Source of the DNA: Octopus sinensis
Taxonomy: Eukaryota
Assembly: GCF_006345805.1 (NCBI RefSeq)
Contig: NC_043012.1
Span: 35,154,001-35,218,000 of the forward strand
Reading direction: 5' to 3'
Length of the DNA: 64,000 bases
Shown: positions 12,461 to 62,908 of the stretch, in pieces
Layout of the letters: each line of letters starts with the position of its first letter
How positions within the stretch are numbered: position 1 is the first letter of the stretch
The notes under the pieces: generated by a model
The model's database searches: none
Seen by the model: only the letters and a program-made list of their open reading frames with translations
What the model was told of the DNA's origin: nothing
Made by a program: the position numbers and the translations under genes

Positions 12461-14143
12461 ACCTTTGTTGACAGAAATTAAAAAAAAAAAAAGAAAAAGT
12501 AATCTTCGCCATGCACCGACTGGTTGTTCATATTTTGCAGCCATATATTGAAAGAATTTCACATTTGCAAAGTATTAAGTTCTTATTTCTTAAAGTAGAG
12601 CGTCTTAGAAATTATTTAAACTACTTTCAGTTGCAAAAGATTCTATAGAGATACCATAAGTCATGGGAATTTTTATAGTGTTCCGGCAGAATGTAATGGA
12701 GATATTTATATTTACTACTGAGGCGTATGAGAAAAATGGAACCCCGGCAGCAGATGTTATTAATATTTTCGCTAATTAGAAAGCAAGTTTAGAAATCCGA
12801 TATGGTGTGAAAGTTTTGGGCTATCAAGTTCACTAAATGTTTTAAAAATTTGGATGTTACAGAGAAACTAAGGAGATTATTGATGGCTTTGAATTATTTT
12901 ATCTAAGGGGGAAAGAATTTCACCATCGACGGAAATTCGATATTGTCACTCTTCTACACTATTCAAAATACTACGTTTGTTGAAGTTTTAAAATCAAATG
13001 ATAAACTAAATCTAAATAGCATGTTGTCAACTTAATGTGACAGTCCCATAAAAGGGGAGAATGCTACTGTTATTTAGCCCTGGGAAACACCGTCTCCTGT
13101 TGGACTTGACACATCTACTGTCTCTACTTTGAAAACATAAGGACACAAATTCACATTGCGCACGCGCATAGAGACACACCTGCTGGTGTTAAATAACTGT
13201 TTTATATAGATCTCTTTATAGAATGTACCGTTCGAAGTAAATATTCAATATGTCTGAGCATTCCCCGTTTTTTTATGCAAACACTGGGATATGTGAGTCT
13301 TTTTAGTGTAAAGGAACGAATGTAATTTACTCTTTTTTTTTTCTACTCTAGGCACAAGGCCCGAAATTTTGGGGAGGGGGACAAATTTATCGACCCTGAT
13401 AGGATGAAAGGCAAAGTTGATCTCGGCGGAATTTGAACTCAGAACGTACGGCGTGCTAACGTTTCTGCCTGTTCGCCGCCTTGTAATTTACTCTTTTCCG
13501 AACATCCATGCTTATGTCTAGAAATGAATTTATTATGCAACTATGAGTTTTATTTAGATTGTTCTGGATATTGAATATTAGGTTAAATATTGAATATTAA
13601 GTATTCTAGGTCAGCCTTTCATCTCTTGACATTTTCAAGTGTGTTGATTACAAGCATACAATCAATAAATCCGTTACACATATATTCATGCATTGCGCGC
13701 GAAAGAACGAGATAATGCTAAACTAAACAAATACACGCATACAGACAGACAGACACACACACGCACACACACAAACACGTACGTGCGCGTACATACACAG
13801 ACAGACAAGCAGGCAGGCAGGCAAGCAGGCAGGCAGGCAAGCAGGCAGGCACACACTGACACACAGGCACATATGTTAGCTCGGTTACATCAAAGAGACA
13901 AATGAATAATGGTAGCTGAATGAAAACAGTGAATTTAGACGCTGTTGTCCTAAGAAAGAAAAATATTCACTGCGTAACGCAATCCTATATGTTCTTTGAT
14001 AAAAACGGGAATTGGAATGTCTTGAATCGCGTTTATTCCATTGGAATTGGTGTGTCTAAAAGAGCAACTACAACACGATCCAATAGATTATACTAAGGAA
14101 GTCTGGAAATGTTGATAAATCTAGGAAGTCTATCGTTCGAAAT

Positions 14144-17100
14144 AAACAGGTAAGTCATAAGGTAACAAACAGGTAAGTCATAAGGTAACAAACAGGTAAG
14201 TCATAAGGAAACAAACAGGTAAGTCATGAGGTAACAAACAGGTAAATCATAGGTAACAAACAGGTAAGTCATAAGGTAACGAACAGGTAAGTCATAAGGT
14301 AACAAACAGGTAAGTCATAAGGTAACAAACAGGTAAGTCATAAGGTAACAAACAGGTAAGTCATAAGGAAACAAACAGGTAAGTCATAAGGTAACAAACA
14401 GGTAAGTCATAAGGTAACAAACAGGTAAGTCATATGGTAACGAACAGGTAAGTCATAAGGTAACAAACAGGTAAGTCATAAGGTAACAAACAGGTAAGTC
14501 ATAAGGTAACGAACAGGTAAGTCATAAGGTAACAAACAGGAAAGTCATAAGGTAGCAAACAGGTAAGTCATAAGGTAACAAACAGGTAAGTCATAAGGAA
14601 ACAAACAGGTAAGTCATAAGGTAACAAACAGGTACGTCATAAGGTAACAAACAGGTAAGTCATAAGGTAACAAACAGGTAAGTCATAAGGAAACAAACAG
14701 TGAAGTCATAAGGAAACAAACAGGTAAGTCATAAGGTAACAAACAGGTAAGTCATGAGGAAACAAACAGGTAAGTCATAAGGAAACAAACAGTTAAGTCA
14801 TAAGGAAACAAACAGGTAAGTCATAAGGAAACAAACAGGTAAGTCATAAGGAAACAAACAGTTAAGTCATAAGGAAACAAACAGGTAAGTCATAAGGAAA
14901 CAAACAGTTAAGTCATAAGGAAAAAAGGTAAGTCATAAGGTAACAAACAGTAAGTCATAAGGAAACAAACAGTTAAGTCATAAGGAAACAAACAGTTAAG
15001 TCATAAGGAAACAAACAGGTAAGTAATAAGGAAACAAACAGGTAAGTCATAAGGAAACAAACAGTTAAGTCATAAGGTAACAAACAGGTAAGTCATAAGG
15101 AAACAAACAGTTAAGTCATAAGGAAACAAACAGGTAAGTCATAAGGTAACAAACAGGTAAGTCATAAGGAAACAAACAGTTAAGTCATAAGGAAACAAAC
15201 AGGTAAGTCATAAGGAAACAAACAGGTAAGTCATAAGGAAACAAACGGTTAAATCATAAGGAAACAAACAGGTAAGTCATAAGGAAACAAACAGTTAAGT
15301 CATAAGGAAACAAACAGGTAAGTCATAAGGAAACAAACAGGTAAGTCATAAGGAAACAAACAGTTAAGTCATAAGGTAACAAACAGGTAAGTCATTAGGA
15401 AACAAACAGTTAAGTCATAAGGAAACAAACAGGTAAGTCATAAGGTAACAAACAGGTAAGTCATAAGGAAACAAACAGGTAAGTCATAAGGAAACAAACA
15501 GGTAAGTCATAAGGAAACAAACAGGTAAGTCATAAGGAAACAAACAGGTAAGTCATAAAGTAACAAACAGGTAAGTCATAAGGTTACAAACAGGTAAGTC
15601 ATAAGGTAACGAACAGGTAAGTCATAAGGTAACAAACAGGTAAGTCATAAGGTAACAAACAGGTAAGTCATAAGGTAACAAACAGGTAAGTCATAGGTAA
15701 CAAACAGGTAAGTCATAAGATAACGAACAGGTAAGTCATAAGGAAACAAACAGGTAAGTCATAAGGTAACAAACAGGTAAGTCATAAGGTACGAACAGGT
15801 AAGTCATAAGTAACGAACAGGTAAGTCATAAGGTAACAAACAGGTAAGTCATAAGTAACAAACAGGTAAGTCATAAGGAAACAAACAGGTAAGTCATAAG
15901 GTAACAAACAGGTAAGTCATAAGGTAACAAACAGGTAAGTCATAAGGTAACGAACAGGTAAGTCATAAGGTAACAAACAGGTAAGTCATAAGGTAACAAC
16001 AGGTAAGTCATAAGGTACGAACAGGTAAGTCATAAGGTAACAAACAGGAAAGTCATAAGGTAGCAAACAGGTAAGTCATAAGGTAACAAACAGGTAAGTC
16101 ATAAGAAACAAAACAGGTAAGTCATAGGTAACAAACAGGTACGTCATAAGGTAACAAACAGGTAAGTCATAAGGTAACAAACAGGTAAGTCATAAGGAAA
16201 CAAACAGTGAAGTCATAAGGAAACAAACAGGTAAGTCATAAGGTAACAAACAGGTAAGTCATAAGGAAACAAACAGGTAAGTCATAAGGAAACAAACAGT
16301 TAAGTCATAAGGAAACAAACAGGTAAGTCATAAGGAAACAAACAGTTAAGTCATAAGGAAACAAACAGGTAAGTCATAAGGAAACAAACAGTTAAGTCAT
16401 AAGGAAACAAACAGGTAAGTCATAAGGAAACAAACAGTTAAGTCATAAGGAAAAAACCAGTAAGTCATAAGGAAACAAACAGTTAAGTCATAAGGAAACA
16501 AACAGGTAAGTCATAAGGTAACAAACAGGTAAGTCATAAGGAAACAAACAGTTAAGTCATAAGGAAACAAACAGTTAAGTCATAAGGAAACAAACAGGTA
16601 AGTCATAAGGAAACAAACTGGTAAGTCATAAGGAAACAAACAGTTAAGTCATAAGGAAACAAACAGGTAAGTTATAAGGTAACAAACAGGTAAGTCATAA
16701 GGTAACAAACAGGTAAGTCATAAGGTAACAAACAGGTAAGTCATAAGGAAACAAACAGGTAAGTCATAAGGAAACAAACGGTTAAGTCATAAGGAAACAA
16801 ACAGGTAAGTCATAAGGAAACAAACAGTTAAGTCATAAGGAAACAAACAGGTAAGTCATAAGGAAACAAACAGTTAAGTCATAAGGAAACAAACAGTTAA
16901 GTCATAAGGTAACAAACAGGTAAGTCATTAGGAAACAAACAGTTAAGTCATAAGGAAACAAACAGGTAAGTCATAAGGAAACAAACAGGTAAGTCATAAG
17001 GAAACAAAACAGGTAAGTCATAAGGAAACAAACAGGTAAGTCATAAGGAAACAAACAGGTAAGTCATAAGGAAACAAACAGGTAAGTCATAAAGTAACAA

Positions 17101-17325
17101 ACAGGTAAGTCATAAGGTTACAAACAGGTAAGTCATAAGATAACAAACAGGTAAGTCATAAGGTAACAAACAGGTATGTCATAAGGTAACAAACAGGTAA
17201 GTCATAAGATAACAAACAGGTAAGTCATAAGGTAACGAACAGGTACGTCATAAGGTAACAAACAGGTAAGTCATAAGGTAAGTCATAAGGTAACAAACAG
17301 GTAAGTCATAAGGAAACAAACAGGT
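14144..17325 (+). repeat. 23-bp tandem satellite (aaacaggtaagtcataaggtaac), about 138 units
   Basis: Head-to-tail units with variants ggtaac/ggaaac and caggt/cagtt. No spacers. Confidence 0.98.
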
Positions 17326-28776: not shown

Positions 28777-29365
28777 GGCAGGAGGAGCTGGCAGAAAAGC
28801 TAGCACGCCGGGCGAAATGCGCAGCCGTATTTCGTCCGCAGTTACGTTCTGAGTTCAAATTCCGCCGAGGTCCACTTTGCCTTTCATCCTTTCGGGGTCG
28901 ATTAAAAAAAGTACCGGTTACGCACTGGGGTCCATATAATCGACATAATCCGTTTGTCTGTCTTTGTTTGTCCTCTCTGTGTTTAGCCCCTTGTGGGTAG
29001 TAAAGAAATAGAAACAGGTATTTCGTCTGCCGTTACGTTCTGAGTTCAAATTCCACCGAGGTGGACTTTGTCTTTCGGGGTCGATAAATTAAGTACCAGT
29101 TACGCCCTGGGATCGATATAATCGACTTAATCCTTTTGTCTGTCCTTGTTTGTCCTCTCTGTGTTTAGCCCCTTGTGGGTAGTAAAGAAATAAGTATTTC
29201 GCCTGTCTTTACCTTTCTGAGTTTAAAATCTGCTGAGGTCGAATTTGCCTTTCATCCTTTCGGGGTCAATAAATTAAGTACCTGTTGCGTACTGAGGTCG
29301 ATCTAATCGCCTAGTTTCCTTCCCCCCAAATTCCGGGCCTTGTGCCTAGAATAGTAAAGAATTAT
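28777..29365 (+). mobile_element. SINE family B (three internal modules)
   Basis: Head plus three ~180-bp modules plus tail. Confidence 0.85.
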
Positions 29366-30947: not shown

Positions 30948-33900
30948 TATTCAGTAGTCTTATTTTTATCACTTACTTTCAGTTCACTACCGAGCACAGC
31001 TTTGTGTGCCATGGTTATGTGTTGTGGTTTGTTGTGATGCTCTTATTTTCACCGTATTGAAAGTGTTTTACGTAGGATGTGTGCGGTGCCTAGTAGGGCT
31101 ATTTTTCGTATGTTATATATAATTGTAAGCCCTGATGTTTTTGTTATGTATTTGTTCGAAAGGGTTTTTTTTTATCATACCTAATGCGCCAACCATAATA
31201 AAAATTGTTTCTGTTTTTAGGCTCCACATTCGAGTTACCTCCCTTTCCAGGAAGGTCTTTGTATTTTTAAAGTTTCTCCATTTCTTTTAGAGAAACATTG
31301 TCATCTGTTGGTATTGATACATCGATTAGAAAGCAGTTTTTTCTTGCTGATCTCTGACAACTATATCCAGCCTATTGGCCTTAATTTCTCTATCTGTGTG
31401 TATTGGCATATCCCAGAGTGTGGTTGCTTTCTCGTTTTCTGTGACCTTTTCTGGCGTGTGCCTATTCCATCTTTTTTCTGTTGCTATTCCATAGTGTTGG
31501 CATAGCTTCCAGTGTATGTAGGTCCCAACTCTGTCGTGTCTGTGAATATATTACTTCTTAGCCAGGACTGGCAGCCAGAGATGATATGATTTATTATTTC
31601 TTGTCCATCTCCACAAATTCTGCAGTTACTTGTTGTTTCTTTTGATTATATGGTTTTGCTAATTTCTGGTGGGGAGGCTTTGGTCTTGTGCTGCAATTCA
31701 AAATCCTTCAGTCTCTGCTTTCAGTCCTGAGCTTCTCGACCATTGCTAGGATTTTACTTTGTCTATTTCTTTTCTGTTTAGTTTAATCCAGTATTTGCCA
31801 TGAAGGGACTTTTCTTGCCATCGTTTCATCGTGATCCTTTGCTGTTCTAGTTTTAGTTTGGACTTCAGTTGTTTTACAGTTTTTGTTGTTTCTTCTTTTT
31901 CTTCATAGTTGTTAGGTACTATGACTTCTTTTTGTATTTGTCAGTTTCTTTAAAGACTGAAACAGTTTTTTTTTGTTTTGTTCGTGTTTTGTGGCTATTT
32001 GTATCAGTTTTCCTTGCTTCTGAAGTAGGTATATTTGCAGTCCTATGGTGGTTATTTTGTAATAGTTTTATAGCTGTATAAGGCCTCTACAACCTTCCAT
32101 ATGTTCTATATATAACCTTTCTATGTCAGATTTTGGGTGGTGCATCCTAAATCCTGTCATTATTTTTCTTGTTTTCCTGTCTATTTTGATTAGTTCATTT
32201 AGAGTCCAGTTAAGAATATCGTAGATGTAACGTATAACAGGGATGGCTAAAGTGTTAATACCTATTATCTTGTTTTTCGCATTGAGCTCTGTTTTCAGTA
32301 TTGATCTAACTCGTCTATAGTATTCCTGTCTTATCTTCTCTTTCATTTGTGTGTGTTGTATCGTATCTCCTAGTTCATTGATTCCTAACTATTTGCATGT
32401 CTAGCTTTGGTCTAATTCTCTTATTTCATTTGCTTTATCTAGTGTGATGCTGCTACTCTTAATTAGTTTTCCTCTTTTCAAGGTTGCTTTGGTACTTTTT
32501 TCTAAACAAATTTCTAAACAAATAAACAAATTCCTTGTTTATTTCTTTGGTAAGTCCATGTACTGTCTGTAGTAATGTTTCCAGCTGTTTATCATTTATA
32601 GCGTACAGTTTTAGATCATCCATAAATGAGAGATGGCTGATTGTTTTGCCGTAGCAGTTGTATCCACATCCAGTTCTGTTTAGCATGTCAGATAAAGGTG
32701 TCAGTGCCAATAAAAAAAGGATGGGTATGGCTTTAGCTTTTATGAATCCCTCTTTTGTCTGGAGCTGTAGCACTATCCGCCCATTATTCATGGAATGTTT
32801 TATATATTTTATAATCATTGGTTCTACCTTGTTCATGGCCAGTGTTTCTAGGAACCATGTGTGGAAAATACTATCAACAGCCTTTCGATAATCGATCCAG
32901 GCCATACTTAGACCCTTTCTTCTTTCTGCGACTGTCTTCAGTCATGGCTTTATTGATCAGTAGCTGATCTTTACAGCCATATGAGCGCTTGCAGCAACCC
33001 TTTTCTCCTGGAAACAGGTCGTTTTCTTCCAGATGTTTGCTCATTCTCTGCGATATTATTGCAGTAAAGGCTTTGTAAATTGTAGGGAGACAAGTTATTG
33101 GTCTGTAAATTCGTGGGTTTGCTGTTTCAGTGTATTTAGGGATTAGAACAGTTTTTCCTTCCATGAGCCATTCAGACATTGTCTCTAGCTCTGCTAGTAT
33201 TTCATTAAATTTCTCAGCCAGCTTTTTATGAGTTCCTCTTAGGTATTTTTACCAGAAGTTGGGAATCTTGTCATGCCCGGGTACTTTCTAGTTGCTTAGT
33301 TTTTGCAGTGCCTGGGTGACCTTTTCAGTTGTTATATGGGCCCAGAGTTGTTCAGGTGCTGAGTTCGTTGTTTTGATAGACTTTTTCTGAGGTTGTTCCG
33401 TCGCAGAGCACATTTCTTTCCAAAATTCTTCCACTTCTTCTGCTGTTGGTGCTGCATTGATGTCTATTTTATTTTTGCCAAGTTCTTGGTAGAATCTTTT
33501 GATGTTGGAGTTGAACTGTTTGTTTTGTTCAAAGAAACGTTAGCATTTCTCATACCGGCGGATTCTCTGTGCTTTGGCGAGAATATCCTGTTCTAGCTAT
33601 TCCTTTACCTCAGCTATACTTTGTTCTCTAATTTATGTATTTATGTAGTATTTATTTTCTCTTCTTTTTGTTTAGTAGTGTTGATTGTCTACTAGTTTCA
33701 TTAAGGATTCACAGATCCTTTCTCTTATTTTCTATTTTTTTCTGGATATCATTAATCCACAGAGTTTTTTTGAGTGGTGATGTTCCTATTTGGATCGGTT
33801 TTGTGGGGTATCCAGCTTCCTTTGTTTCCATAGAGGCTGCTCTATATATTATATCATTTTGCCTAGTCATATTGACATTTGTTTCTGTGGTTATTAGTTC

Positions 33901-38245: not shown

Positions 38246-38825
38246 ATATACCAGTAATATTCTTGGGTTAAATACCAGCCACTTACGAATTTGTTAAGAA
38301 CTCCTTCTGCAGTGTTTTGAAATCCTCACTTTCAACCCTCCTCCTCCTTGATACTGTTGATTCTGTTATTTTCAGTGTTAATTTTGGGTGGTCCAAATGA
38401 GGATTTTAACTCTCATTTCTAGCGGGTAGACACTTCAGTGTGTGCTTATGATTAATACACATGCACGCACATACACACAAACACACACACACACAGATGA
38501 GCATATAAGAGCAAACACACACACACACACACACACACATATGCACATATTGCAGAAGTAATAGAGTGACTCAAGGTTCCAGAGTTTCGTGCCATTCATC
38601 AAGTGATAAACGCACGAAACTCTCAGACCTTGAGTCACTCTGTTACTTCTGCTAGATATGAATAAAAATACACAGATACTCATATTTTGAGTTCTACTTT
38701 TCCTGTTTGCATCATCCTGTCTGTCTGTCTGCCTGTCTGTCTGTCTGTATGTATGTATGTATGTATGTATGTATGTATGCATGTATGTGTGTATGTATGT
38801 ATGTATGTATGTATGTATGTATGTA

Positions 38826-40143
38826 TGAAGGCACTGTGAATAAAGATAGAGTGACCCGAGAATATTACACCAGACTTAAGAAAATATGGAAGTCGGAACT
38901 CTCTTCTTACAACAAAATAATATCCCACAATGCATTTGCAGTACCAGTGCTGATCCCAACATTTGGGATACTTGATTGGTCTGTAGAGGAAATCCACTCC
39001 ATAGATATCAAAACCCGCAAAATCCTGACAACAACTGGGAACTTCCACAGAAACAGCGATGTTAACAGGCTCTACCTAAGAAGAAATGAAGATGGTAGAG
39101 GCCTGAGATCAGTGCAGACGGCCTTCGAATGCCGTATGGTATCACTCAGGCAGCATCTGCAAAATAACAGCAGCAAAAATAAATATATAAATGCAGTGCT
39201 GAATAGTGAAGTGAGCAGCAGTGTACGAGTTGGCAGTGAACTCCTCAAGAAGCACTCTCTTCCTGATGATCTCCAATACAGCCCCAAAACAGCTGAGCTC
39301 TCTTACTCCAGAGAAGACTTCTATTGGAAAGCACTCAGCATACAAAACATAAAAAGACTCTGCATGGGTATGTTACCCGGAAGCTTGAAGAAGTTAGTAG
39401 AATTGATACACAACACAGCCGCTGTTGGACACAAGACCACTACATCACACCACCCTTTGAAGGCTATGCGTTTGCAATCCAAGAACAGGAGATTGTCACA
39501 AAGTACCTGATGAACAAGAGAGACAGTGACGCTCTTGTAATCCCAAGGTGCAACCGCATTTGTAGGCTACGTCACGATTATGTGGAAGACATTACGCATG
39601 TGATTAGCAGCTGTCCTAATATGTCGCCACGGTACTTCCACACTATGCGGCACGATGTTGTCGCTAAAACAATTTACAATGCTATCCGCAAAAAAAGACT
39701 GTCCTGAAATAAACTTAGAAAATCCCTCTGTTATGGAATACATTCATAAACACCAACTCAAGAAGGAATATTGGTGGAATATTCCCATCAAAACTTCTGT
39801 CAAATGTAAACATAGCAGGCTGGATATTGTTGTTTGGGACAGGGGCAAAGGTATGTGCCATCATAGAGGTCAGCTGCTCTGCAGATATAAATAATATCTC
39901 TTTGAAAATCAAAGAAAAAGGGCATCTATGGACAATTGCTTCGAAACCTCCAGCTTCTATATCCAGTCTATGAGTTCACCATATTCATACCAATAATGAT
40001 TGGGGCACTAGGTTTTGTTAGTAAATGCTTAAAGGAGAATCTGGGATTTTCAGAAAGAGAAACTGGCCGGCTGATCTGTACATTACAAGTCCAGTCTGTG
40101 AGTGGAACAGTAAAAATATGCAAGACTTTCTCAAGTTCCAAAT
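38826..40143 (+). mobile_element. Second R4/Dong-like LINE 3' fragment (different subfamily)
   Basis: EYYTRLKKIWKSELSSYNK, RLYLRRNEDGRGL, LHGY, EGYAFAIQEQ, CRL..EDITHVISSC..RHD, RLDIVVWD, IPIMIGALG. Several frameshifts. Confidence 0.9.
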
Positions 40144-43801: not shown

Positions 43802-44386
43802 AGGCGGTGAGCTGGCAGAAACGTTAGCACGCCGGGCGAAATGCTTAGCTGTATTTCGTCTGCCGTTACGTTCTGAGTTCAAATTCCGCCGAGGTCGACT
43901 TTGCCTTTCATCCATACAGGGTCGATAAATTAAGTACCAATTACGCACTGGGGTCGATATAATCGACTTAATCCGTTTGTCTGTCCTTGTTTGTCCTCTC
44001 TGTGTTTAGACCCTTGTGGGTAGTAAAGAAATAGGTATTTCGCCTGCCTTTACTTACTGAGTTCAAATTCCGCTGAGGTCGACTTTGCCTTTTATCCTTT
44101 CGGTTGTCGATTAAATAAGTACCAGTTACGCACTGGGGTCGATATAATCGACTTAATCCGTTTGTCTGTCCTTGTTTGCCGTCTCTGTGTTTAGTCCATT
44201 GTGGGTAGTAAAAAAATAGGTATTTCGACTGCTGCTACATTCTGAGTTCGAATTCCACCTAGGTCGACTTTGCCTTTCATCCTTTCGGGGTCGATAGATT
44301 AAGTACCAGTTGCGTACTGGGGTCGATCTAATCGACTGCCCTACCCTCCTCCAAAATTTCGGGCCTTGTGCCTAGAGTAGAAAAGA
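43802..44386 (+). mobile_element. SINE family B (three modules), well preserved
   Basis: ggcggtgagctggcagaaacg head, three core modules, tail cctagagtagaaaaga. Confidence 0.9.
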
Positions 44387-44882: not shown

Positions 44883-45339
44883 GACCGGGCGTTGTGCGTG
44901 TTTATTGAGCGAAAACGCCTAAAGCTCCACGATGCTCCGGCAGAGAATGGTGGCGACCCCTGTTGTACTCTTTCGCTCCAATCTTCTCACACTCTTTCTT
45001 CCTGTTCCTTGTCCCCGACTTCCTACGCAACCGCTGAGCCTGGATGCGCATTCATCCATCCGTCGATGCTCTCGGTGTCGGGGCTTGACTTGCTTTCTCT
45101 TCTGCGGGTCTTACGAATAGCAAAGGACCACGTTTCGGACTTCTCCCATCTTGCGAGCTCTGGGACGAAGACCGTTCGCTCAACAGCAAAAGCAACAGCA
45201 ATGACAACAAAAACAACAGCAACAGCCAGTTTACTTACTTGTTTATAGATTTTTCTTCTATTTTAAAATTTATCCAGCCGAAATGTGCTTTTTTCCTTAA
45301 TTTATGTATTGTCTTGTATTCTTTCAGAAATCCAGCAAA

Positions 45340-45489
45340 ATGCAGGTTCTACCCTTGGCTCATGATTTCCCTAGCAAGCACATGACCTTTTCTGGTCTGC
45401 TTGCTGTGCTGGTTGGTTTGTTCACTTTCATAATATCTTGCGTCTACGCAGGAGGCATGATCATTGGAACATTGATCTGTTGTTTATTT
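45340..45489 (+). CDS. Four-TM MS4A/CD20-like protein, coding exon 1 ([50 protein letters not shown])
   Basis: Acceptor gtattctttcag|45328; ATG in aaaATG context; donor ttt|gtgagt; 150 nt, phase 0. Encodes TM1 and half of TM2. Confidence 0.85.
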
Positions 45490-46990: not shown

Positions 46991-48635
46991 TATTATTATT
47001 ATATGTTATTATTATTATTATTATTATTATTGCAATTTAATTCGAATTACAATTAAATTTAAATTTAATTGATCCAAAAACAATTCAATTTAAAAGTATA
47101 GTCACTCCTCAGGTCAACAATAATAACAATAATAGTTAAATAAATACATATTTTTAATAAATAATAAAACAGAATTAAATAAAAATATGATACTTCTTAT
47201 AGAAGAAATTCCGTTAACTAAATTTTAAACTTAAAAAGTAGGACCAAGTGTTTATAATACATTTATCCCGTTAAAAACCTAATGAAAAAAATAGAGTAAA
47301 TAGATAGAAATATGTATATTATCTGTGAAGATATATTTTAGCTTTGAGAATAATCTAAACAAACTATAGTATATTTTTACAGGGAAAAATATAAGATTTC
47401 AATTAATTAAAATAAAACTACTCAAAATATACTTAAGTTAAGCTAAAATACTATAATATAATCTATATTTATTAACTAATTAAATTATATATTACTTTAT
47501 TAATTAAATAAACATCTAATTTGATCCAATTCTAACTATGTACTAAACCCTATACAAACATGTGTAGACTTATAATATATCTTATATCAACAACGCTGCA
47601 GCCACAACCCTGCAATAGCATTTTGTATATATTTCAACAATATACTAACAATTAATTTAAACTTATTATATAAGTAAATTAATTTATGTCTAGAACTAAT
47701 ATTTCGCTCAACGATAAAATAAACAAAGTACTTATTTTTATTATTAAATTGAATAGTATATAAAGAAAGAAATATAAAAAAGTTTTCACTACCTATACTA
47801 TAATATTTTACGTTACAAACTATTTCACAAAACAACCACAAATAATGCTCTAAGATTTTCGTTCACATATAATAATTATAATAATAAGAATAATTAAATA
47901 AAAGTACGTATTTTAAATTATAATTAACAAATTAAAAAAATTAGAAATACATATTTTTTAATCAATAATCATATAAATTTCACCATTATTTCTTAAATAA
48001 AATGTATACTTATTTTTTTCGAAGATATTTTATGAACTAAAATTTTTTTTATTAAAAACGTATAACTTAGCGTTTATATGTCTAGATCTAATATTTCGTT
48101 TATTAAGGGAATAACGAAAGTACTTATATTATTATTATTATTATTATTAAATTCAATAGTACAAAAAAACAACAACTTTTCACTACCTATACTATAATAT
48201 TTTACGTTACAAACTATTTCACAAAACAACCACACTTAATGCTTTTCACTACCTATACTACCTTCCCCCGCAGAGATGCGGGCGTCAGATCTCTCCTTTC
48301 GAAAACACTAACTTTTGAAACATTGTTTACAAAATGTAAATTTGGCACTCTGCGGTAAGTTTTGTAAGATGAATAGAGAGGCTTACCTTCTCCCGCGGAG
48401 AAGTGAGAGTCAGATCTCTCCTTTCGAGAAGATGAACAGTTTACAAAATAACAGCTGATCGTTTGCGAATGAGCGTGTCTACTGTCAACACTTAGGATTT
48501 TTGCTCTGGTAACTTCTGCTCTCTCCCATGTTCACGCACGACCAAGCTATATGTCACTATGAGTAGAGCAACGGATTCAACTAATTTGGAAATTTGTTGT
48601 GGAGAAACGGAAAATATTGTTTATATGGGTGTATA

Positions 48636-51795: not shown

Positions 51796-52201
51796 GTCCT
51801 ACGCTTCTATACCTATAATACTCCTTCGTAAATTCACTTCTACTCCCCCTCTCTTTTCCTCTCTCCCCTCCATCACCTCGTTATCTCTTTTCTTGCCATC
51901 ATCGCAATTCAAACATATACACACAATTGTCGAATACAAAGATTTTTGACTTTGCTTTCTCAACTTTTAAAAAATTGATATTTGTCGATGAAATTTTCCC
52001 CGAAGAGTTATTCCCCCTTGATTGCACTGGGACATCAAAGATCTTTGTATTCGACAATTGTGTGTATATGTTTGAAGTGCGATGATGGCAAGAAAAGAGA
52101 TAATGAGGTGATGGAGGGGAGAGAGGAAAAGAGAGAGGGAGTAGAAGTGAGGAGTAATCACTGAATTTACGAAGGAGTATTATAGGTATAGAAGCGTAGG
52201 A
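51796..52201. repeat. Inverted repeat with ~155-bp arms
   Basis: cctacgcttctatacctataat...gaatacaaagat is mirrored by atctttgtattc...attataggtatagaagcgtagg. Confidence 0.9.
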
Positions 52202-53326
52202 CCCGCATGAATTTTCCAGAACCCTTACCCTAACCCTAACTCCACCCACGAAAAAATAATAAATAAAATTTTTGCACCACAAATTCCGATGTAATCAGAC
52301 TCTACACATTCAGTATTTGTAGAAAATTTCATTTAAAAAAATCCATGAGGAAACAAAGTTATTGATGGGGCCACACTTGTGAACGTATGCCTTTTCCTTT
52401 CTGCCACGGATTTTCGTTGCGATTCTTTAAAAACAACCAAGAATTACCTTCTTTTGCACTCGTCAGCACAAAACGCCCAGACTATACATTTCTGACGGGC
52501 CATGTCTGTTAATGCTTTTAAACAAGAATAATTTCATGAGAATCTTTGTATAACATTGTGGCCGTATGTCGACTTAATTAGTATTACCGTAACAGCATCT
52601 TGAGCATGCTGGGAAAATGCTCAATGTCATTTCATCTGGCTTTATGTTGTTGGTTCAAATTTCGCCGAGGTCAAATTTGCCGTTTATCCTTTCAATGTAG
52701 AAGGGGTCGATAAAAAAGTACCAGTTGAACGCTGGGGTCGTTGAAATTGACTTTCCCTTCGCCCGAAATTTCAGGTCTTTTGCCTGTAATAGAAAGGATT
52801 TGTTATGGGAAAGAATTGTTACTACGTCGGACAAGATGCTAAAATATATTTCTTCCATTGCTAAAATGGTAATTATTTCATTGAACCCGGAAGAATGAAA
52901 AGTAAGTCGACCTTGACAAAGTTTCAACTAAGACCCGAAAGGCAGACGAAATGCTGCAAAGCCTTTTGACCGACGTGTACGCCGTCGTCATAATAATAAT
53001 AATAATAATAATCCTTTCTATTTCACAAACCTGAAATTAGGGAGAGGGGGATAGTCAAATACATCGACCCCGTTACACAACTGGTACTTGTTTTATCGAC
53101 TCCGGAAGGATGAAAGGCTAAGTCGAAGTTTGTCCCCTTGTGCGTAGTAAAGAAATAGGTATTTCGTCTGTCTTGACATTCTGTGTTCAAATTTCGCCGA
53201 CGTCGACTTTGCCTTTCATCCTTTCATGGTCGATAAATTAAGTACCAGTTGCGTACTGGGGTCGATCTAATCGACTGGTCCCTTCCCCGCTAAAAAATTT
53301 CGGGCCTTGAGCCTAGAGTAGAAAAG

Positions 53327-53385: not shown

Positions 53386-53745
53386 CAACTCACAGCTTGT
53401 ATTGCTAGGCATGCTGGAAAGTGTCAGCTGTCCACAGCCAACAGACTAACGTGACACTTGTTTACTGGTCATGCTTCAAGAACCCTGCGAAGAATTCTTG
53501 CAGTTCCAAGCAATGCTAGTTTTTGTAGGTGTTCTACCTTCACACTTGCACCAATCTTTTTCAGCCATGCTGGTAGTTGAGTGCTGATACTTCCAAGTGC
53601 ACCAATTACCCTGGGTATCACCTCTACTCTCTTCATTGACCACAACCTTTCTATTTCCCACTTTAAATCGTCAAAGCTGTTTATTTTTTCTTCTTCTTTC
53701 ACATTGACCCTGTTGTCACCGGGGCTTCCTATGTCGATTATCATA
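53386..53745 (-). mobile_element. Third R4/Dong-like 3' end (RLE C-terminus, UTR, TAA tail)
   Basis: IIDIGSPGD..KEEEKI..DLKWEIERLW..VIGALG..LQKLALLGTARILRRVL*. (TAA)n on both sides. Confidence 0.85.
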
Positions 53746-53805
53746 CATGTACTTTATTATTATTATTATTATTATATTATTATTATTATTATAATTATTA
53801 TTATT

Positions 53806-54352
53806 GAGTGAGAGAGCAGTGCATGTCATCGAAGTGACACTGGGGTAAATATATACGAAGCTCAGTATACCCATCATGACTACCTGTCTGATAAGGATAC
53901 ACCAGGCATATGCATCACAACAATATGTGCGCGACATGTTGATCTCATATCAAGATAAACAGCACATGACCTTGCAGTTAGAATTTTCTTCTGGTCAAGT
54001 AACCCATCCTGCTCAAAAGGTCCCTGAGAAGGGTTGCTTAAGGATGTTGAACAAACCACCCATGTTTTCACCGGTGAAATATTCAAACCCCAAAGAATCC
54101 CTGTCAACAAATGGCTATGATGCTCCCCCACTACTTCTGCTTGTGATCAGACATTCACATATCGTCAGCCACTAAGGGACATGCTCAACTGGTTAAGGTT
54201 AAACAACTGACTGGCAAATCTGTGGTATTGAACAGAATATTTGTTGTAGCTCATCTTTTATACCAAGACAAAACAATGTACATGATAACACTTCCAATTA
54301 GTTAAGATCAGAAGCCATGAGAGCCACTGCCTGGTATTGAATCAGGACAATT
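53806..54352 (-). mobile_element. TAA-associated non-autonomous element, full length
   Basis: Reverse complement of 11084-11630; TAA tracts on both sides. Confidence 0.85.
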
Positions 54353-54386
54353 TATTATTATTATTATTATTATCATTATTATTATT

Positions 54387-54435
<49 letters not shown>

Positions 54436-54470
54436 TATTATTATTATTATCATTATTATCATCATCATCA

Positions 54471-54507
<37 letters not shown>

Positions 54508-54536
54508 TATCGTTATTGTTATTGTTATTATTATTA

Positions 54537-54586
<50 letters not shown>

Positions 54587-54668
54587 CATCATCGTTTTAT
54601 ATATATATATATTTATTTATTTATCTATTTATTTATTTATTTATCTATTTCTTTTTTTATCATTTCAG

Positions 54669-54676
54669 GCACCAGC
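54669..54676 (+). CDS. Four-TM protein micro-exon 4 (8 nt, gcaccagc)
   Basis: tttttttatcatttcag|GCACCAGC|gtaagt; strong sites; frame is restored by the 13-nt partner. Confidence 0.6.
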
Positions 54677-54976
54677 GTAAGTACAACCTCTACTTTCACA
54701 TTTCTGGGACAATATTTGATAGGTAAGAAGGTAAAAAAAGGAACAGGATATCGAAGAAAGTACTCTCCTTTATTTCTTCTCAGCGATTTATATCCACTTT
54801 TAAAATAAGACTGTCCTAAAGAACATACATACACACATACATAAATATATATGTCTGAGTGTAGCGATATATGTGTGTGTGCGTGTATGTGTGAATGTAC
54901 ATTTATTTATATAAATTATAAATACAGAAAGTGTAAGTTGAGTAAAATTATTTTACCATTAGCTTTCCATATTCAG

Positions 54977-54989
54977 CTACAATTCTTTC
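54977..54989 (+). CDS. Four-TM protein micro-exon 5 (13 nt, ctacaattctttc)
   Basis: ctttccatattcag|CTACAATTCTTTC|gtaact; donor is weaker; 8+13=21 nt gives APAYNSF. Confidence 0.45.
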
Positions 54990-55084
54990 GTAACTTACTA
55001 TCATGTACTAATAATTTATTTTATTTCATTTTATAATAAAAAATTATTTACATGTCTGTATTAATAAATATCTTCCTTATATCC

Positions 55085-56620
55085 CAATATTGACCACGAT
55101 GAAGGGGTAGAAGCTTGCATGGATGCCTTCGAAAAGCGGTCAGCCAAAATTATTCCATCAAATTTTCTCTGTAGATTATTGAGATTTGTGTTACAAAGTA
55201 ACACAATGAAGTTTAAACAAAGATTTTACCACCAGACGAATGATTGCGCCATGGTTACCCCCGTGGCAGTTACTTTCGCTAATGTCTTCATGACGAAATT
55301 CGACTCAGTTACTAAAGACATTCGAACCCTTTTATCGTCATGAACCAATACTCTGGTTACGGTTCATTGATGGCGTATTTTTATCTGGGGAGGATCACAG
55401 GATAGTTTAATGGAATTGCAATTCTGTGACCGTTGTACTAAAAGCTATGGCTTTAAATCCAACATATAATTTACGTCTAGTTTTCTGGAAGCAGAATAGG
55501 GACAGAGTTACTTTGCAAGCCCACGTCTTTCCACATTTATCTACCCCGCTGCTCCGATCATCCACACCATCTTATTCGGTGAAATCCGAAATCCCAATTT
55601 TTTAGGATAAAACGGATTTGTACTGACTGGAAACATGCAAATGCTTTTGTTTGTCATTATGTCAAACGCGGTTACAGTGAATAACGATTAAAGGAAATAG
55701 AAAATGAAATAGCTAATATTAGCAAAGACAGTCAAACCTACACGCATAATTTTAGTAAACACAATACAAGAAAAAGAAGAATACAATAGATGACATAATT
55801 CCTTTTGTGATTAACTGGCATTTCATAAGTGTTGCATGAAAGTTACTAGCATGTGGCGAAAAGATATCCTCGTTCAAACAGATATTTCCTCGGCTACCTA
55901 TTGACGGAATAAGAATAAAAGAGAATTATTGACCTCTCTTTCTGACTCCAAGAAAACGAATATTGGAGTATCTGCACGCTGTACCTTGAAAAACAGTTTC
56001 AAGAGAGGTAAGCCCTGTTCATTGTGCAACAACGTGAGTGAATTCCATCAGGAATCATAACAGAAATGTTATGATTTACACGGAAGATAGGACATGTAGA
56101 GATTTGGTGTACGCGGCAGAATGCACGGAACACAACTTGATTTATGTTGGTTGTACAACAGAACAATTAAACAAAAGGTTTAATGGGCACAGATTCGATG
56201 TCAGGCCCAATAACAGTAGTTTGACAGAACTTGCTGAACATTTCGTTTCAAACGACGGCAATTTTGAAAAAGATTTGAAAGTGCATATTCTCAGAATATG
56301 TTTGCGGGTTATTAACATCACGCCCTGGAGGAAAGAATATCAAGAGAATATCATCAAATTTATACAAAATTGTTTGATTAAATATTCTTTTTCTTTTCTT
56401 TTTTTCCTTCTTTTTTTCTATCTTTTTCTTTCCGCTTGTTATAAAAGTGAAACTTAAAGACTGATGATGTCATTCCATCAACGTGCGGACGCTAGTTGCT
56501 CTCGTTCATACTTCACATTTGAATTTCTATAATTTCAAATTCTTATCACTTCTTATTTTGAACTTGACAAAGACAGACTTACTTTCGAAATATCGTTCAA
56601 CCAATAAAATATCTTTTACA
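55085..56620 (+). mobile_element. Penelope-like element, degenerate (RT plus GIY-YIG)
   Basis: RT: FVLQSNTMKFKQRFYHQTNDCAMVTPVAVTFANVFM and WLRFIDGVFFIW. Endonuclease: LVYAAECTEHNLIYVGCTTEQLNKRFNGHR. Downstream ctgatga relic at 56461. Confidence 0.88.
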
Positions 56621-56691
56621 ATCGAATCGCGCTCTTCCTCTTAACTGTTTATCTTCGTGAAGAGTTACGTCAATCCTTTTTAAAATATTAT

Positions 56692-56729
<38 letters not shown>

Positions 56730-56836
56730 TTACTACTACTACTACTATCATTATTATTATTGTTGTTATTGTTGTTGCTGTTATCATCATCATTTGCATA
56801 TCTTTATTTCTCTCCTTCTTTACTTTGTCATTTCAG

Positions 56837-56848
56837 CTTTATTACACT
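56837..56848 (+). CDS. Four-TM protein micro-exon 6 (12 nt, LYYT)
   Basis: ctttgtcatttcag|CTTTATTACACT|gtaagt; symmetric phase 0-0; flanks are paralogous to those of micro-exon 4. Confidence 0.65.
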
Positions 56849-57599
56849 GTAAGTACAAACTTTACGTTTACATTTCTGGGACAATATTTAAGAGATAAGG
56901 AGGGGAAAAACCCGAGGAATATCGAAGAAAATACATTCTGTTAATTATTCTGGGCGATTTACATCCATTTTTAAAACAAAACTATTTCATAGGATAAACA
57001 TACATGCAGACACACACACACACACACGCAAGCACGCTCGCCCGCACACATACACACAACACACACGTGCGCTTATATGTTAATGATGCACATAAATACA
57101 TGGCAGGTATACATAATACTGAAGTGCTCATAAAGTAAACACATACAGACAAATATATAAATACACCAAAATTTAAAAAATAATGATAATATACAATCAA
57201 TGAAGAGACAAAAAAAAGAGTAAGATGATACATGTTGATTTTATTAGGTATTTCTGTTTATTTAGAAACCTACAATGAACAGATCATTTCACAGACGCTA
57301 AACTATAAATTTCACAGGGTACAACCTTAAAGTTGACACCACTCCGCGAAACGCAGAAAATTCCTGTCTCGCTATTGGCTAAAAGTACCCACTTTTTTTC
57401 CGATTATTAAACCTCTGTAATCTATTCCTCCAATTTTTTTCTCCACAACAGCATAACTTCACAGCAATGAAGCTGAAAGGCTGCATTATTAAAGCCGATT
57501 TTCAGATTTTTTACTTCTTTTTAAAAAATGCATATTTTGCGAATGAAAAAACTAGATCCGGCATGCCAAACCTAATAGCACCATCTGGGTGGTATATAA

Positions 57600-57831
57600 G
57601 GCGGCGAGCTGGCAGAATCGTTAGCACGCCGGGCGAAATGCGTAGCCGTATTTCGTCTGCCGTTACGTTCTGAGTTCAAATTCCGCCGAGGTCGACTTTG
57701 TCTTTCATCTTTTCGAGGTCGATAAATTAAGTACCAATTACGCACTGGGGTCGATGTAATTAACTTAATCCGTTTGTCTCTCCTTGTTTGCCCCCTCTGT
57801 GTTTAGCCCCTTAGGGGTAGTAAAGAAATAA
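57600..57831 (+). mobile_element. SINE family B copy
   Basis: Intact head ggcggcgagctggcagaatcg plus one module. Confidence 0.88.
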
Positions 57832-57986
57832 GTATATATGCATATATTTATATATATGAATACATATATACACACACACGTTCACACATACACACACTCA
57901 CACACGTAAATGCATACGCACACACGCTCTTATACACACACAAATATATTTGACTGCAGCTTTAAGGCTAAAACAATTTAAAGATT

Positions 57987-58179: not shown

Positions 58180-58272
58180 TTTTCAACTAAGTGTAATATA
58201 TGAAAAAACAATTAAATTGGAGAAAAAGAATAAATGAAATGTTTTGTAGATATTTTCATAGTCATCAGATAG

Positions 58273-58323
<51 letters not shown>

Positions 58324-58965
58324 CTCTCTCTCTCTCTGTATTCCTTTGTGAATGCCTGGTAGGTAGGTAGTAAACTTGAAGGAATAGTTTGGATACAGAG
58401 AATTGATGGTTTAAGCAGGAGTAGCCGAGGGAGAAGAAGAAGAAGGAGGGGGGGGGGAGGAGGAGGAGAAGGAAAAGATGAAGGAGGAAGGGAAGTAAGA
58501 GTAGGGAAAGAAGAGGAGGATGGAGAAAGAAAAGAAATGTACAGGAGTGTTGTGCCACAGTAAGTTGTTTGTGGAATCTTCTTTAATGGTCAATTGACCT
58601 AAAAGTGACCTGTTGTGGTCGTAGCAGTAGTGGTTGGAAATTTCTAAATTCTTGTAGTAGTTCTATCTGTGGTGGTGGGGGAATCCAAAAAAGGTTTATA
58701 TTTTGCAATAAAATATGCTTCTTTGCTGCTGCGCCGATTATAGAATTTATAGCGGGGAAAAAATTCTAAAGTTGGATTGTTCGTTAGTGGTGTAAATATC
58801 TACGTGCTCCCTTAATCCTATTTTTCTGTATTCTCGTATTTTAATCTGGGATCGATGTACCGTTTACCTATTTAAAGACTATGGAAATATCTACTAAACA
58901 TTTCACTTAATTTTTTTCTCCAATTTAATTGTTTTTCTTATTTTACTCTTAGCTGAAATTATGAA
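58180..58965 (-). mobile_element. Penelope-like relic with ~85-bp inverted flanks
   Basis: Minus-strand GIY-YIG C-terminus TVHRSQIKIREYR..HVDI..FRIF..KEAYFIAKYKP (~58690-58864). 58180-58263 is the inverted copy of 58877-58964. Confidence 0.6.
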
Positions 58966-59128
58966 GTATATTTGCCACCTAAATGTGGCGGACTCATAGG
59001 TGACGATGCTACTGTTGTTTTTAGCCCTAGGAAGACATCTCCTCCAGCTGGCTAATGACACGCTGTCTGTGTCCGATTAGTATTTGCGAAGGGATATCAC
59101 CATTCCCATCTCTAGCCTTACGTGATAC

Positions 59129-59171
59129 ATGCGGACCCGGGTTTCTGTGTAGTAACCCGTCATCAGCGTGT
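59129..59171 (-). ncRNA. Minimal hammerhead ribozyme motif (inverted partner)
   Basis: acacg-CTGATGA-cgggttactacaca-GAAA-cccggg-TC-cgcat; palindromic stem III; stem II partly decayed. Confidence 0.55.
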
Positions 59172-59313
59172 GACAATCACCAGCCAGGTATGAGAACTCA
59201 TTCCAAACGCAAAATACTATATGCTTTTTTCAGTGACAAACTGTCGCTGCTCTGGAAAAAGCATACAATATTTTGCGTTTGGAATAACTTCTCATTGCTA
59301 GCTGGTGATTGCC

Positions 59314-59356
59314 ATACGCTGATGACGGGTTAATACCCAGAAACCCAGGTCTGTGT
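59314..59356 (+). ncRNA. Minimal hammerhead ribozyme motif
   Basis: atacg-CTGATGA-c gggt taat accc a-GAAA-cccagg-TC-tgtgt. Confidence 0.65.
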
Positions 59357-59532
59357 GCATCATGTAAGGTTAGAGAGGGGAACGATAATTTCCCTTTGCA
59401 AATAATAATTGGACACAGGCAGTGTGTCGTTAACCAGCTCTTGTTGGCTAACGACCCACTGCCTTTTACAGCCCAGCTCTCTCTCTTTCTCAGTATATTT
59501 TTATTGTATATTGTTTGTTTATTATTTTACAG

Positions 59533-59643
59533 GGTAATAAAACCATTCTAGCTTTGAGCATCATCTCTCTGCTGCTGCTTATCCTAGTTATGCTCGTTTT
59601 AGGCCTACTTTTATTCATCGTCAACCGTTATCGTTCAAGCACT
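59533..59643 (+). CDS. Four-TM protein exon 7 (GNKTILALSIISLLLLILVMLVLGLLLFIVNRYRSST)
   Basis: gtttattattttacag| ... act|gtaagt; 111 nt, phase 0-0; NKT sequon, TM4, then basic RYR. Confidence 0.85.
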
Positions 59644-62796: not shown

Positions 62797-62880
62797 ACCC
62801 ACACAACGACAACGTCGACAAGTCACGCAAAGACTGTGACAACCACCACCACCATTGAAACTCCGCCGGCCAGAGCGTAA
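62797..62880 (+). CDS. Four-TM protein terminal exon (THTTTTSTSHAKTVTTTTTIETPPARA*)
   Basis: cttttatcttccacag|; phase 0 matches exon 7; ends TAA; AATAAA follows. Confidence 0.7.
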   Translation, partial: THTTTTSTSHAKTVTTTTTIETPPARA

Positions 62881-62902: not shown

Positions 62903-62908
62903 AATAAA
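62903..62908 (+). promoter_or_regulatory. Candidate polyadenylation signal AATAAA
   Basis: 22 nt after the stop codon of the predicted terminal exon; could be chance in AT-rich DNA. Confidence 0.4.

Follow-up and report, generated by a model that had tools for sequence, protein, structure and literature searches.

Comparison with described systems

Runs of very small symmetrical exons, with variable products, raised dN/dS and transposon enrichment, are reported for the schistosome MEG genes and VAL-6 in excerpts of two papers, in which one exon duplication of MEG-3 is linked to a transposon and MEGs are described as secreted, possessing a signal peptide, restricted to flatworms and coded mostly by micro-exons (PMC4350168, PMC10526429). 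In this study, we analyzed a plus-strand gene in 64,000 nucleotides of the Octopus sinensis genome (contig NC_043012.1, positions 35,154,001 to 35,218,000; hereafter the window), where an earlier note had pointed to two micro-exons, numbered 4 and 6, in duplicated surroundings. The octopus gene likewise has small symmetrical exons and an exon duplication near a transposon. However, its micro-exons form one loop of a predicted four-transmembrane protein, 167 residues are supplied by five ordinary exons, and RNA contigs display one path per organism. By analogy it may work as the MEGs do, but it would not be counted among them: micro-exons are not the majority of its coding region, and hydropathy, used without a signal-peptide predictor, gives four hydrophobic segments rather than a secreted form. 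We propose, with a probability of about 0.72, that an array of micro-exon cassettes codes for the loop joining the third and fourth transmembrane segments (TM3 and TM4), and that this array is larger than first noted and only partly present in the assembly.

In ascidian MS4A proteins, variation is concentrated in the outer loops, which hold positively selected sites, according to part of one source (bioRxiv 10.1101/2022.08.15.492342). The octopus protein would resemble MS4A/CD20 in its four predicted TM segments with a short first and a longer second outer loop. An exhaustive single-sequence search of 1.84 billion representatives returned four proteins, all from octopods: the O. vulgaris predicted protein P0001 (CAI9734194.1), two Argonauta hians models (P0002 and P0003) and an O. 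bimaculoides fragment (P0004). None of the four, two of which are broken models, matches the MS4A/CD20 family PF04103 at E up to 10, in which they differ from MS4A/CD20, and no Pfam family fits the octopod proteins. We know of no micro-exon array in this loop of MS4A proteins.

Between duplicates of snake-venom PLA2 genes, introns are far more conserved than coding exons, which is read as positive selection in a portion of the source (PMC7285919). Introns outlasting exons between duplicates are common to both systems, but whole genes are duplicated and Ka/Ks is measured in the venom case, whereas the octopus has exon cassettes of 9-12 bases within one gene, with no sign of a toxin. Exons of the eMIC (SRRM3/4) type have weak 3' sites and nearby UGC motifs, as stated in part of another paper (PMC8797185). 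The octopus micro-exons conform to this neural programme as exons of 3-27 bases in a bilaterian, yet they form a tandem family, their pyrimidine tracts are long, their donors have the consensus gtaagt, and UGC is absent within 30 bases. In the open-access literature, neither this gene nor such an array in cephalopods was found to be described, which is a weak negative.

Two homologous micro-exon cassettes

The window is animal DNA rich in microsatellites, and the gene model was obtained by a splice-site scan of its letters. Two cassettes lie in the intron between coding exons E3 and E7.

54669..54676, plus strand: micro-exon 4 (cassette A), 8 nt in the window and 9 nt in RNA (Ala-Thr-Ser), one A missing from the window copy; from splice scan and RNA contigs
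54677..54841, plus strand: downstream intron flank, copy A, conserved, with a second GT donor at 54723
56837..56848, plus strand: micro-exon 6 (cassette B), 12 nt (Leu-Tyr-Tyr-Thr); from splice sites, and used as an exon, frame shifted, by P0001
56849..57016, plus strand: downstream intron flank, copy B, conserved

Both micro-exons are preceded by catttcag, as the earlier note had claimed, and both are also followed by gtaagtac. The alignment of about 155 bp of downstream flank, claimed there by eye, is confirmed as well: the first 41 intron bases are identical at 37 positions and the next 114 columns at 78, and a blastn comparison within the window aligns the two at 75% identity across 172 columns (E 3e-27), without a third copy. 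The local alignment score is 124, compared to a maximum of 30 in 1000 shuffles. An exact block of 20 bases in the flanks occurs exactly twice in the window when up to 3 mismatches are allowed, with 0.01 expected. These copy numbers refer to the 64-kb window; the flank pattern gave no matches against metagenome contigs. The two cassettes are homologous and the duplication is real.

Flank B has lost the second GT donor, which stands 46 bases inside flank A and is used twice by P0001. A 54-base long form of exon 4 was rejected due to an in-frame stop in the window frame.

Gene structure and predicted protein

Five ordinary coding exons surround the cassettes.

45328..45489, plus strand: E1, start codon at 45340, TM1 and the start of TM2; from splice scan, 96% identity to P0001, 31/50 identical to P0002
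46582..46647, plus strand: E2, 66 nt, remainder of TM2; the 5' loose end at E3 in 4/4 contigs consists of the final 30 bases of E2, 22/22 residues identical to P0001
50503..50583, plus strand: E3, 81 nt, TM3, phase 0; 4/4 contigs cover the whole exon without an intron
59533..59643, plus strand: E7, N-x-T sequon and TM4; 19/32 identical to P0002 318-349, sequon position same in both
62797..62880, plus strand: E8, last coding exon, Thr-rich tail and stop, AATAAA at 62903; 18/24 columns identical to the end of P0002

When E1 was used as query, one protein was returned, P0001 (96%); E1 words are present in 20 of the 24 listed sequencing runs. None of 598 pattern matches in metagenome contigs was a confirmed locus. 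The five ordinary exons all align to P0002 in the same sequence (31/50, 13/21, 16/25, 19/32 and 18/24). This alignment establishes the frame in which E7 and E8 are read and makes P0002 the likely orthologue. The four hydrophobic segments are common to P0002, and the micro-exons are placed between TM3 and TM4. Because an N-x-T sequon stands at the end of this loop in both the window gene and P0002, and basic residues come after TM4, the loop is presumably extracellular. Judged by its sequence, the product is a four-transmembrane protein, so far known from octopods only.

The MS4A-like identity is a weak lead. Its topology has the four hydrophobic segments, with an ends-inside orientation suggested by the sequon and the basic residues. 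The second half of P0003 falls in a CD20 cluster of the Atlas at 0.87, and the best Atlas value for P0001, 0.79, is MARVEL-like and likewise a lead only. The top Foldseek row was 8k7t_B (E 1.5, from a pLDDT-50 model), a chain that we take to be FceRI-beta/MS4A2; the better single-domain model (pLDDT-70) gave no MS4A row. Fold searches returned generic helical bundles with no E below 0.001, and a PDB sequence search with a 4-row profile gave two rows with a best E of 0.81.

P0003 comprises two four-TM units in one model and is a paralogue, and its contig matches that of P0002 in size, which suggests that the two Argonauta genes form a cluster. P0004 is a paralogue fragment resembling the first unit of P0003.

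Transcripts downstream of E3

Four of the 24 listed runs were aligned to E3 and its borders, and 30 bases of the assembled contigs were read beyond the match edge. Runs X1 and X3, from two studies, belong to organism A, and X9 and X12 to organism B, with four studies in all. In each of the four contigs the match covers E3 only, with the end of E2 before it and 9-base units after it. Since the end of E2 stands directly before E3, the contigs are spliced. In organism A, E3 is followed in 9-base steps by ATS, AST, ISI and G.., and the 30 letters are identical in both studies. Unit 1 equals micro-exon 4 with an additional A; exactly one splice-flanked (YAG..GT) site in the window is found within one edit of it, and this is micro-exon 4. 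Units 1 and 2 of organism A match at 7/9 bases. In organism B the first two units are almost identical to each other and are followed by ISI and GA as in organism A; as read from the contigs, at least 3 of 18 bases in the first units differ between the organisms, each residue-changing if the units correspond. The RNA thus holds at least four units after E3, i.e. at least three beyond micro-exon 4.

The micro-exons are of lengths divisible by three and in phase 0 (9 in RNA, 12 in DNA, 9 and 18 in P0001), apart from the 8-base window copy of exon 4. As exon 4 has 9 bases in RNA in two runs of organism A, the window copy would be an assembly error or a broken allele. The numbering 4 and 6 in the earlier note implies an exon 5, which we take to be a 13-base candidate; the resulting three-exon model of 8+13+12 bases is wrong.

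54977..54989, plus strand: 13-nt candidate exon 5 with a weak donor, which would restore the frame of the 8-base exon 4; absent from the RNA seen

This candidate was rejected because the RNA matches 3/13 bases at that place. For the later RNA units, the interval from E3 to E7 offers no splice-flanked match, and for units 2 and 3, with one edit allowed, there is none anywhere in the window. Tiling the missing units with exons of 3-4 bases was also rejected, with 12 chance matches, none in order.

Both contigs of organism B end 348 bases past E3. If this is the poly(A) end, the loop would measure 65-115 bases, or about 7-12 units contributing 22-38 residues. The same end-distance sum for X3 gives 8-28 bases, although 31 were seen. 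A contig end is therefore not necessarily the end of the mRNA, which makes the estimate of loop length soft.

The earlier note would have counted as refuted with neither exon present in transcripts. Exon 4, however, is spliced after E3, exact but for one base in two of the four runs, and a related unit is present in the other two. This contradicts, for exon 4, the alternative that the flank is a dispersed repeat with chance splice motifs and the micro-exons are unused. That explanation is very improbable: although the window is rich in dispersed repeats, the flank was counted in the window only and exon 6 is unseen in RNA, there are just two flank copies in 64 kb, both in the same intron, and further O. 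vulgaris copies sit in the same gene.

It is also conceivable that alternative splicing draws on the array as a combinatorial pool, in the manner of schistosome MEG genes, with the contigs showing the main path only. Symmetric exons permit this, the X1 contig breaks 81 bases past E3 as a branch would cause, and the units of P0001 differ from both RNA sets. However, independent studies agree on the path within each organism (2/2 in A, 2/2 in B), a weak argument as contigs lose rare forms, and we regard such a pool as unlikely.

A proposed, partly assembled cassette array

The loop of P0001 can be explained by more cassettes than the window holds. After E3 it has 18 bases and then reads the flank in frame to the second donor (14/15 residues as in copy A, 13 as in copy B), followed by 9 bases and the flank again in another frame (13/14 residues as in copy A, 11 as in copy B). 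Exon 6 comes next, out of frame, and its first base cannot be the C of the window. The two read-throughs together with exon 6 imply that O. vulgaris would have at least three cassettes, two or more of A-type plus B. In the same loop, P0002 displays two blocks of 92 identical residues with a period of 107 and differing short segments around and between them. By eye these blocks do not resemble the Octopus flank, which points to a separate and recent expansion in Argonauta. The protein searches contained no transcript-based model of the loop (1 match among 72 candidates, 2 among 541, 0 among 6). Growth of the loop by cassette duplication, as proposed in the earlier note, is supported and was understated, given at least four RNA units after E3, a flank read twice more in P0001 and the repeat of 107-residue period in P0002.

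We propose that the loop is an array of 9- or 12-base micro-exons, all in phase 0. The repeat unit would consist of a pyrimidine tract and acceptor, the micro-exon, the donor and about 165 bases of intron, and a tandem copy would carry working splice signals along. A unit length divisible by three would preserve the frame, so that units could be gained, lost and altered freely. Cassette B (12 nt) would be the older sister, at a flank distance of about 0.22 from A, and A-type cassettes (9 nt) would have multiplied more recently. Each further RNA unit presumably has its own cassette, probably located between 54677 and 56837. The assembly would then keep two of at least five cassettes (four RNA units and exon 6) and would have lost one base of exon 4, most likely by collapse of the repeat array. 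Duplication may have proceeded by unequal crossing-over, for which the repeated flanks, the microsatellites and the retroelement would serve as substrates.

A real deletion allele or the transcript of a paralogue would be less likely than a collapsed array. Here the window would be correct as DNA: either the middle cassettes and a single base of exon 4 are truly missing from this haplotype, which would then be a null allele or one that skips exon 4, so that the copy number of the array varies between individuals, or the RNA came from a near-identical paralogue. This conforms to the joining of E3, exon 6 and E7 in frame without exon 4, to the remaining coding exons being in frame and matching P0001 or P0002, and to the variation of units among organisms A, B and P0001. 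On the other hand, both studies of organism A yielded the same 30 letters, the base that is missing belongs to a pair of A, and searches of Octopus proteins gave no second gene copy, only a distant fragment. Dropping one A of a pair is a common long-read error. We consider a correct window quite unlikely.

Several observations weigh against the proposed array. The further RNA units have no genomic copy in the window and are putative exons. Neither exon 6 nor E7 was observed in RNA, although exon 6 would lie beyond the 30 letters read. The runs are only presumed to be RNA, none being recorded as such, but the joint of E2 and E3 does indicate splicing. The first units of organism B differ from those of P0001. 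Organisms A and B also differ within E3, by 2-3 bases (3 in 86), which means that some background divergence exists. As predicted models, P0001 and P0002 contain intron read-throughs or frame shifts, and their cassette counts were read back from protein rather than DNA. Finally, the comparison of exon and intron rates given below is one pair of 9 bases, picked after looking.

If the array is as proposed, it is a case of micro-exon birth by cassette duplication in which the intron record is still legible, and copied cassettes would let a loop grow, shrink and change fast without breaking the protein. Both available annotations of the gene are wrong, and such arrays can drop out of assemblies. 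The cassettes also offer a natural series for finding the intron elements that let a 9-base exon splice. If the loop is hypervariable, a recognition role of an unstudied octopod membrane protein is indicated. In a bolder and unlikely reading, the gene would encode an octopod-specific MS4A-like membrane receptor, the outer loop of which holds 7-12 cassettes of tripeptide micro-exons in the manner of an accordion. Diversifying selection would make the cassettes vary in number and sequence from one sister species or individual to another, Argonauta would have expanded the array again on its own, and splicing may be combinatorial, which would amount to a MEG-like variation device in a sensory, immune or gamete-recognition receptor.

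Divergence of exons and introns

The exons differ in length and sequence, as the earlier note had stated, except that exon 4 has 9 bases, not 8, in RNA of two of four runs. The 9-base exon 4 matches exon 6 at 2/9 bases at best, while the flanks differ at 19% of 160 ungapped columns; at p=0.25, the probability of at least 7/9 bases differing is 0.0013. Faster change of the exon than of the intron, also claimed before, holds for this pair and is suggested by it, on 9 bases and a post hoc choice. That the exons diverge faster through selection on an exposed loop is a reading to which we give slightly less than even odds. The window and P0001 are identical in the residues of E2 and E3 but differ at two residues of the short first loop, which fits selection on exposed loops. 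Cassette turnover, replacement or conversion could mimic exon substitution.

The contrast may instead arise from the intron. Intronic splicing enhancers for a tiny exon, or gene conversion, would keep the flanks alike, and the exons would be a tolerant Ser/Thr spacer turning over without positive selection; this is compatible with duplication. Conservation of the intron is higher over its first 41 bases than further on (37/41 vs 78/114, Fisher p 0.006, with the boundary chosen post hoc), which fits a splicing element, and some splicing constraint may act on the first 40 intron bases. The perfect 20-base block, a stretch retained in both O. vulgaris copies, agrees with this, and recent copying or conversion is suggested by the Argonauta repeat with its 92 identical residues. 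However, at 68% the weaker part of the flank still shows much greater similarity than the exons do (2/9), and neither UGC within 30 bases upstream nor GCAUG within 200 bases is found at either micro-exon (0/2). Units 1-2 also differ by at least three bases from organism A to organism B, each a residue change if the units are orthologous, which speaks against a passive spacer. An origin of the contrast on the intron side is tenable, at somewhat less than even odds.

Tracts and retroelement around the cassettes

Three kinds of sequence accompany the cassettes.

53781..54371, strand unassigned: dispersed repeat, the end of which runs into the tract before cassette A; 3 other copies in the window, 83-89% identical
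54352..54596, plus strand: trinucleotide tract before cassette A
55068..56457, plus strand: decayed Penelope-like retroelement, broken reverse transcriptase (RT)-like frames and then GIY-YIG, single copy in the window; from Pfam PF01541, translation and self-search
56687..56776, plus strand: trinucleotide tract before cassette B

The tracts end 73 bases upstream of exon 4 and 61 bases upstream of exon 6. Only 2.1% of window positions have a trinucleotide tract within 90 bases, and none of the five other exons has one nearer than 2.7 kb. The similar tracts of the earlier note are unusual in placement, but their homology is not proven, because the one before exon 4 doubles as the terminus of a dispersed repeat.

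The element between the cassettes matches PF01541 (GIY-YIG) with E 1.1e-4 and 22.9 bits at a cut-off of 22.6, whereas its RT-like frame of 91 residues has no Pfam RT match. A decayed element is thus present where the earlier note had placed a Penelope element, and the name leans on the GIY-YIG match together with presumed Penelope-type RT motifs in the translation.

Other features of the window

The four contigs reach about 59-100 bases past E1 if E2 and E1 precede (computed by hand), which points to an untranslated first exon upstream of 45328. Self-complementary stretches were found in introns of the gene at 51796-52202 and 59046-59439 (79% and 82% over about 400 bases), and a further inverted pair at 58181-58272 and 58868-58958. 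Intron 2 contains a strongly AT-rich island at 47050-48250 (bin GC 0.255) with an internal repeat by eye, and a frame of 91 residues in it has no Pfam match.

At positions 14139-17325 a 23-base unit is repeated in tandem about 137 times with 93% matches, each copy having CAG and then GTAAGT and resembling an acceptor plus donor; it is probably a minisatellite. Broken LINE-type reverse transcriptase frames lie on the minus strand at 32068-33539 (RVT_1, E 8.9e-8 and 0.0016). More retroelement-like frames were seen by eye at 38662-39894 and 53469-53753, and two tested frames had no Pfam match at E 0.01. A SINE-like repeat of about 185 bases, both tandem and dispersed, has many copies in the window (43851-44337, 28827-29192, 57594-57835 and others).
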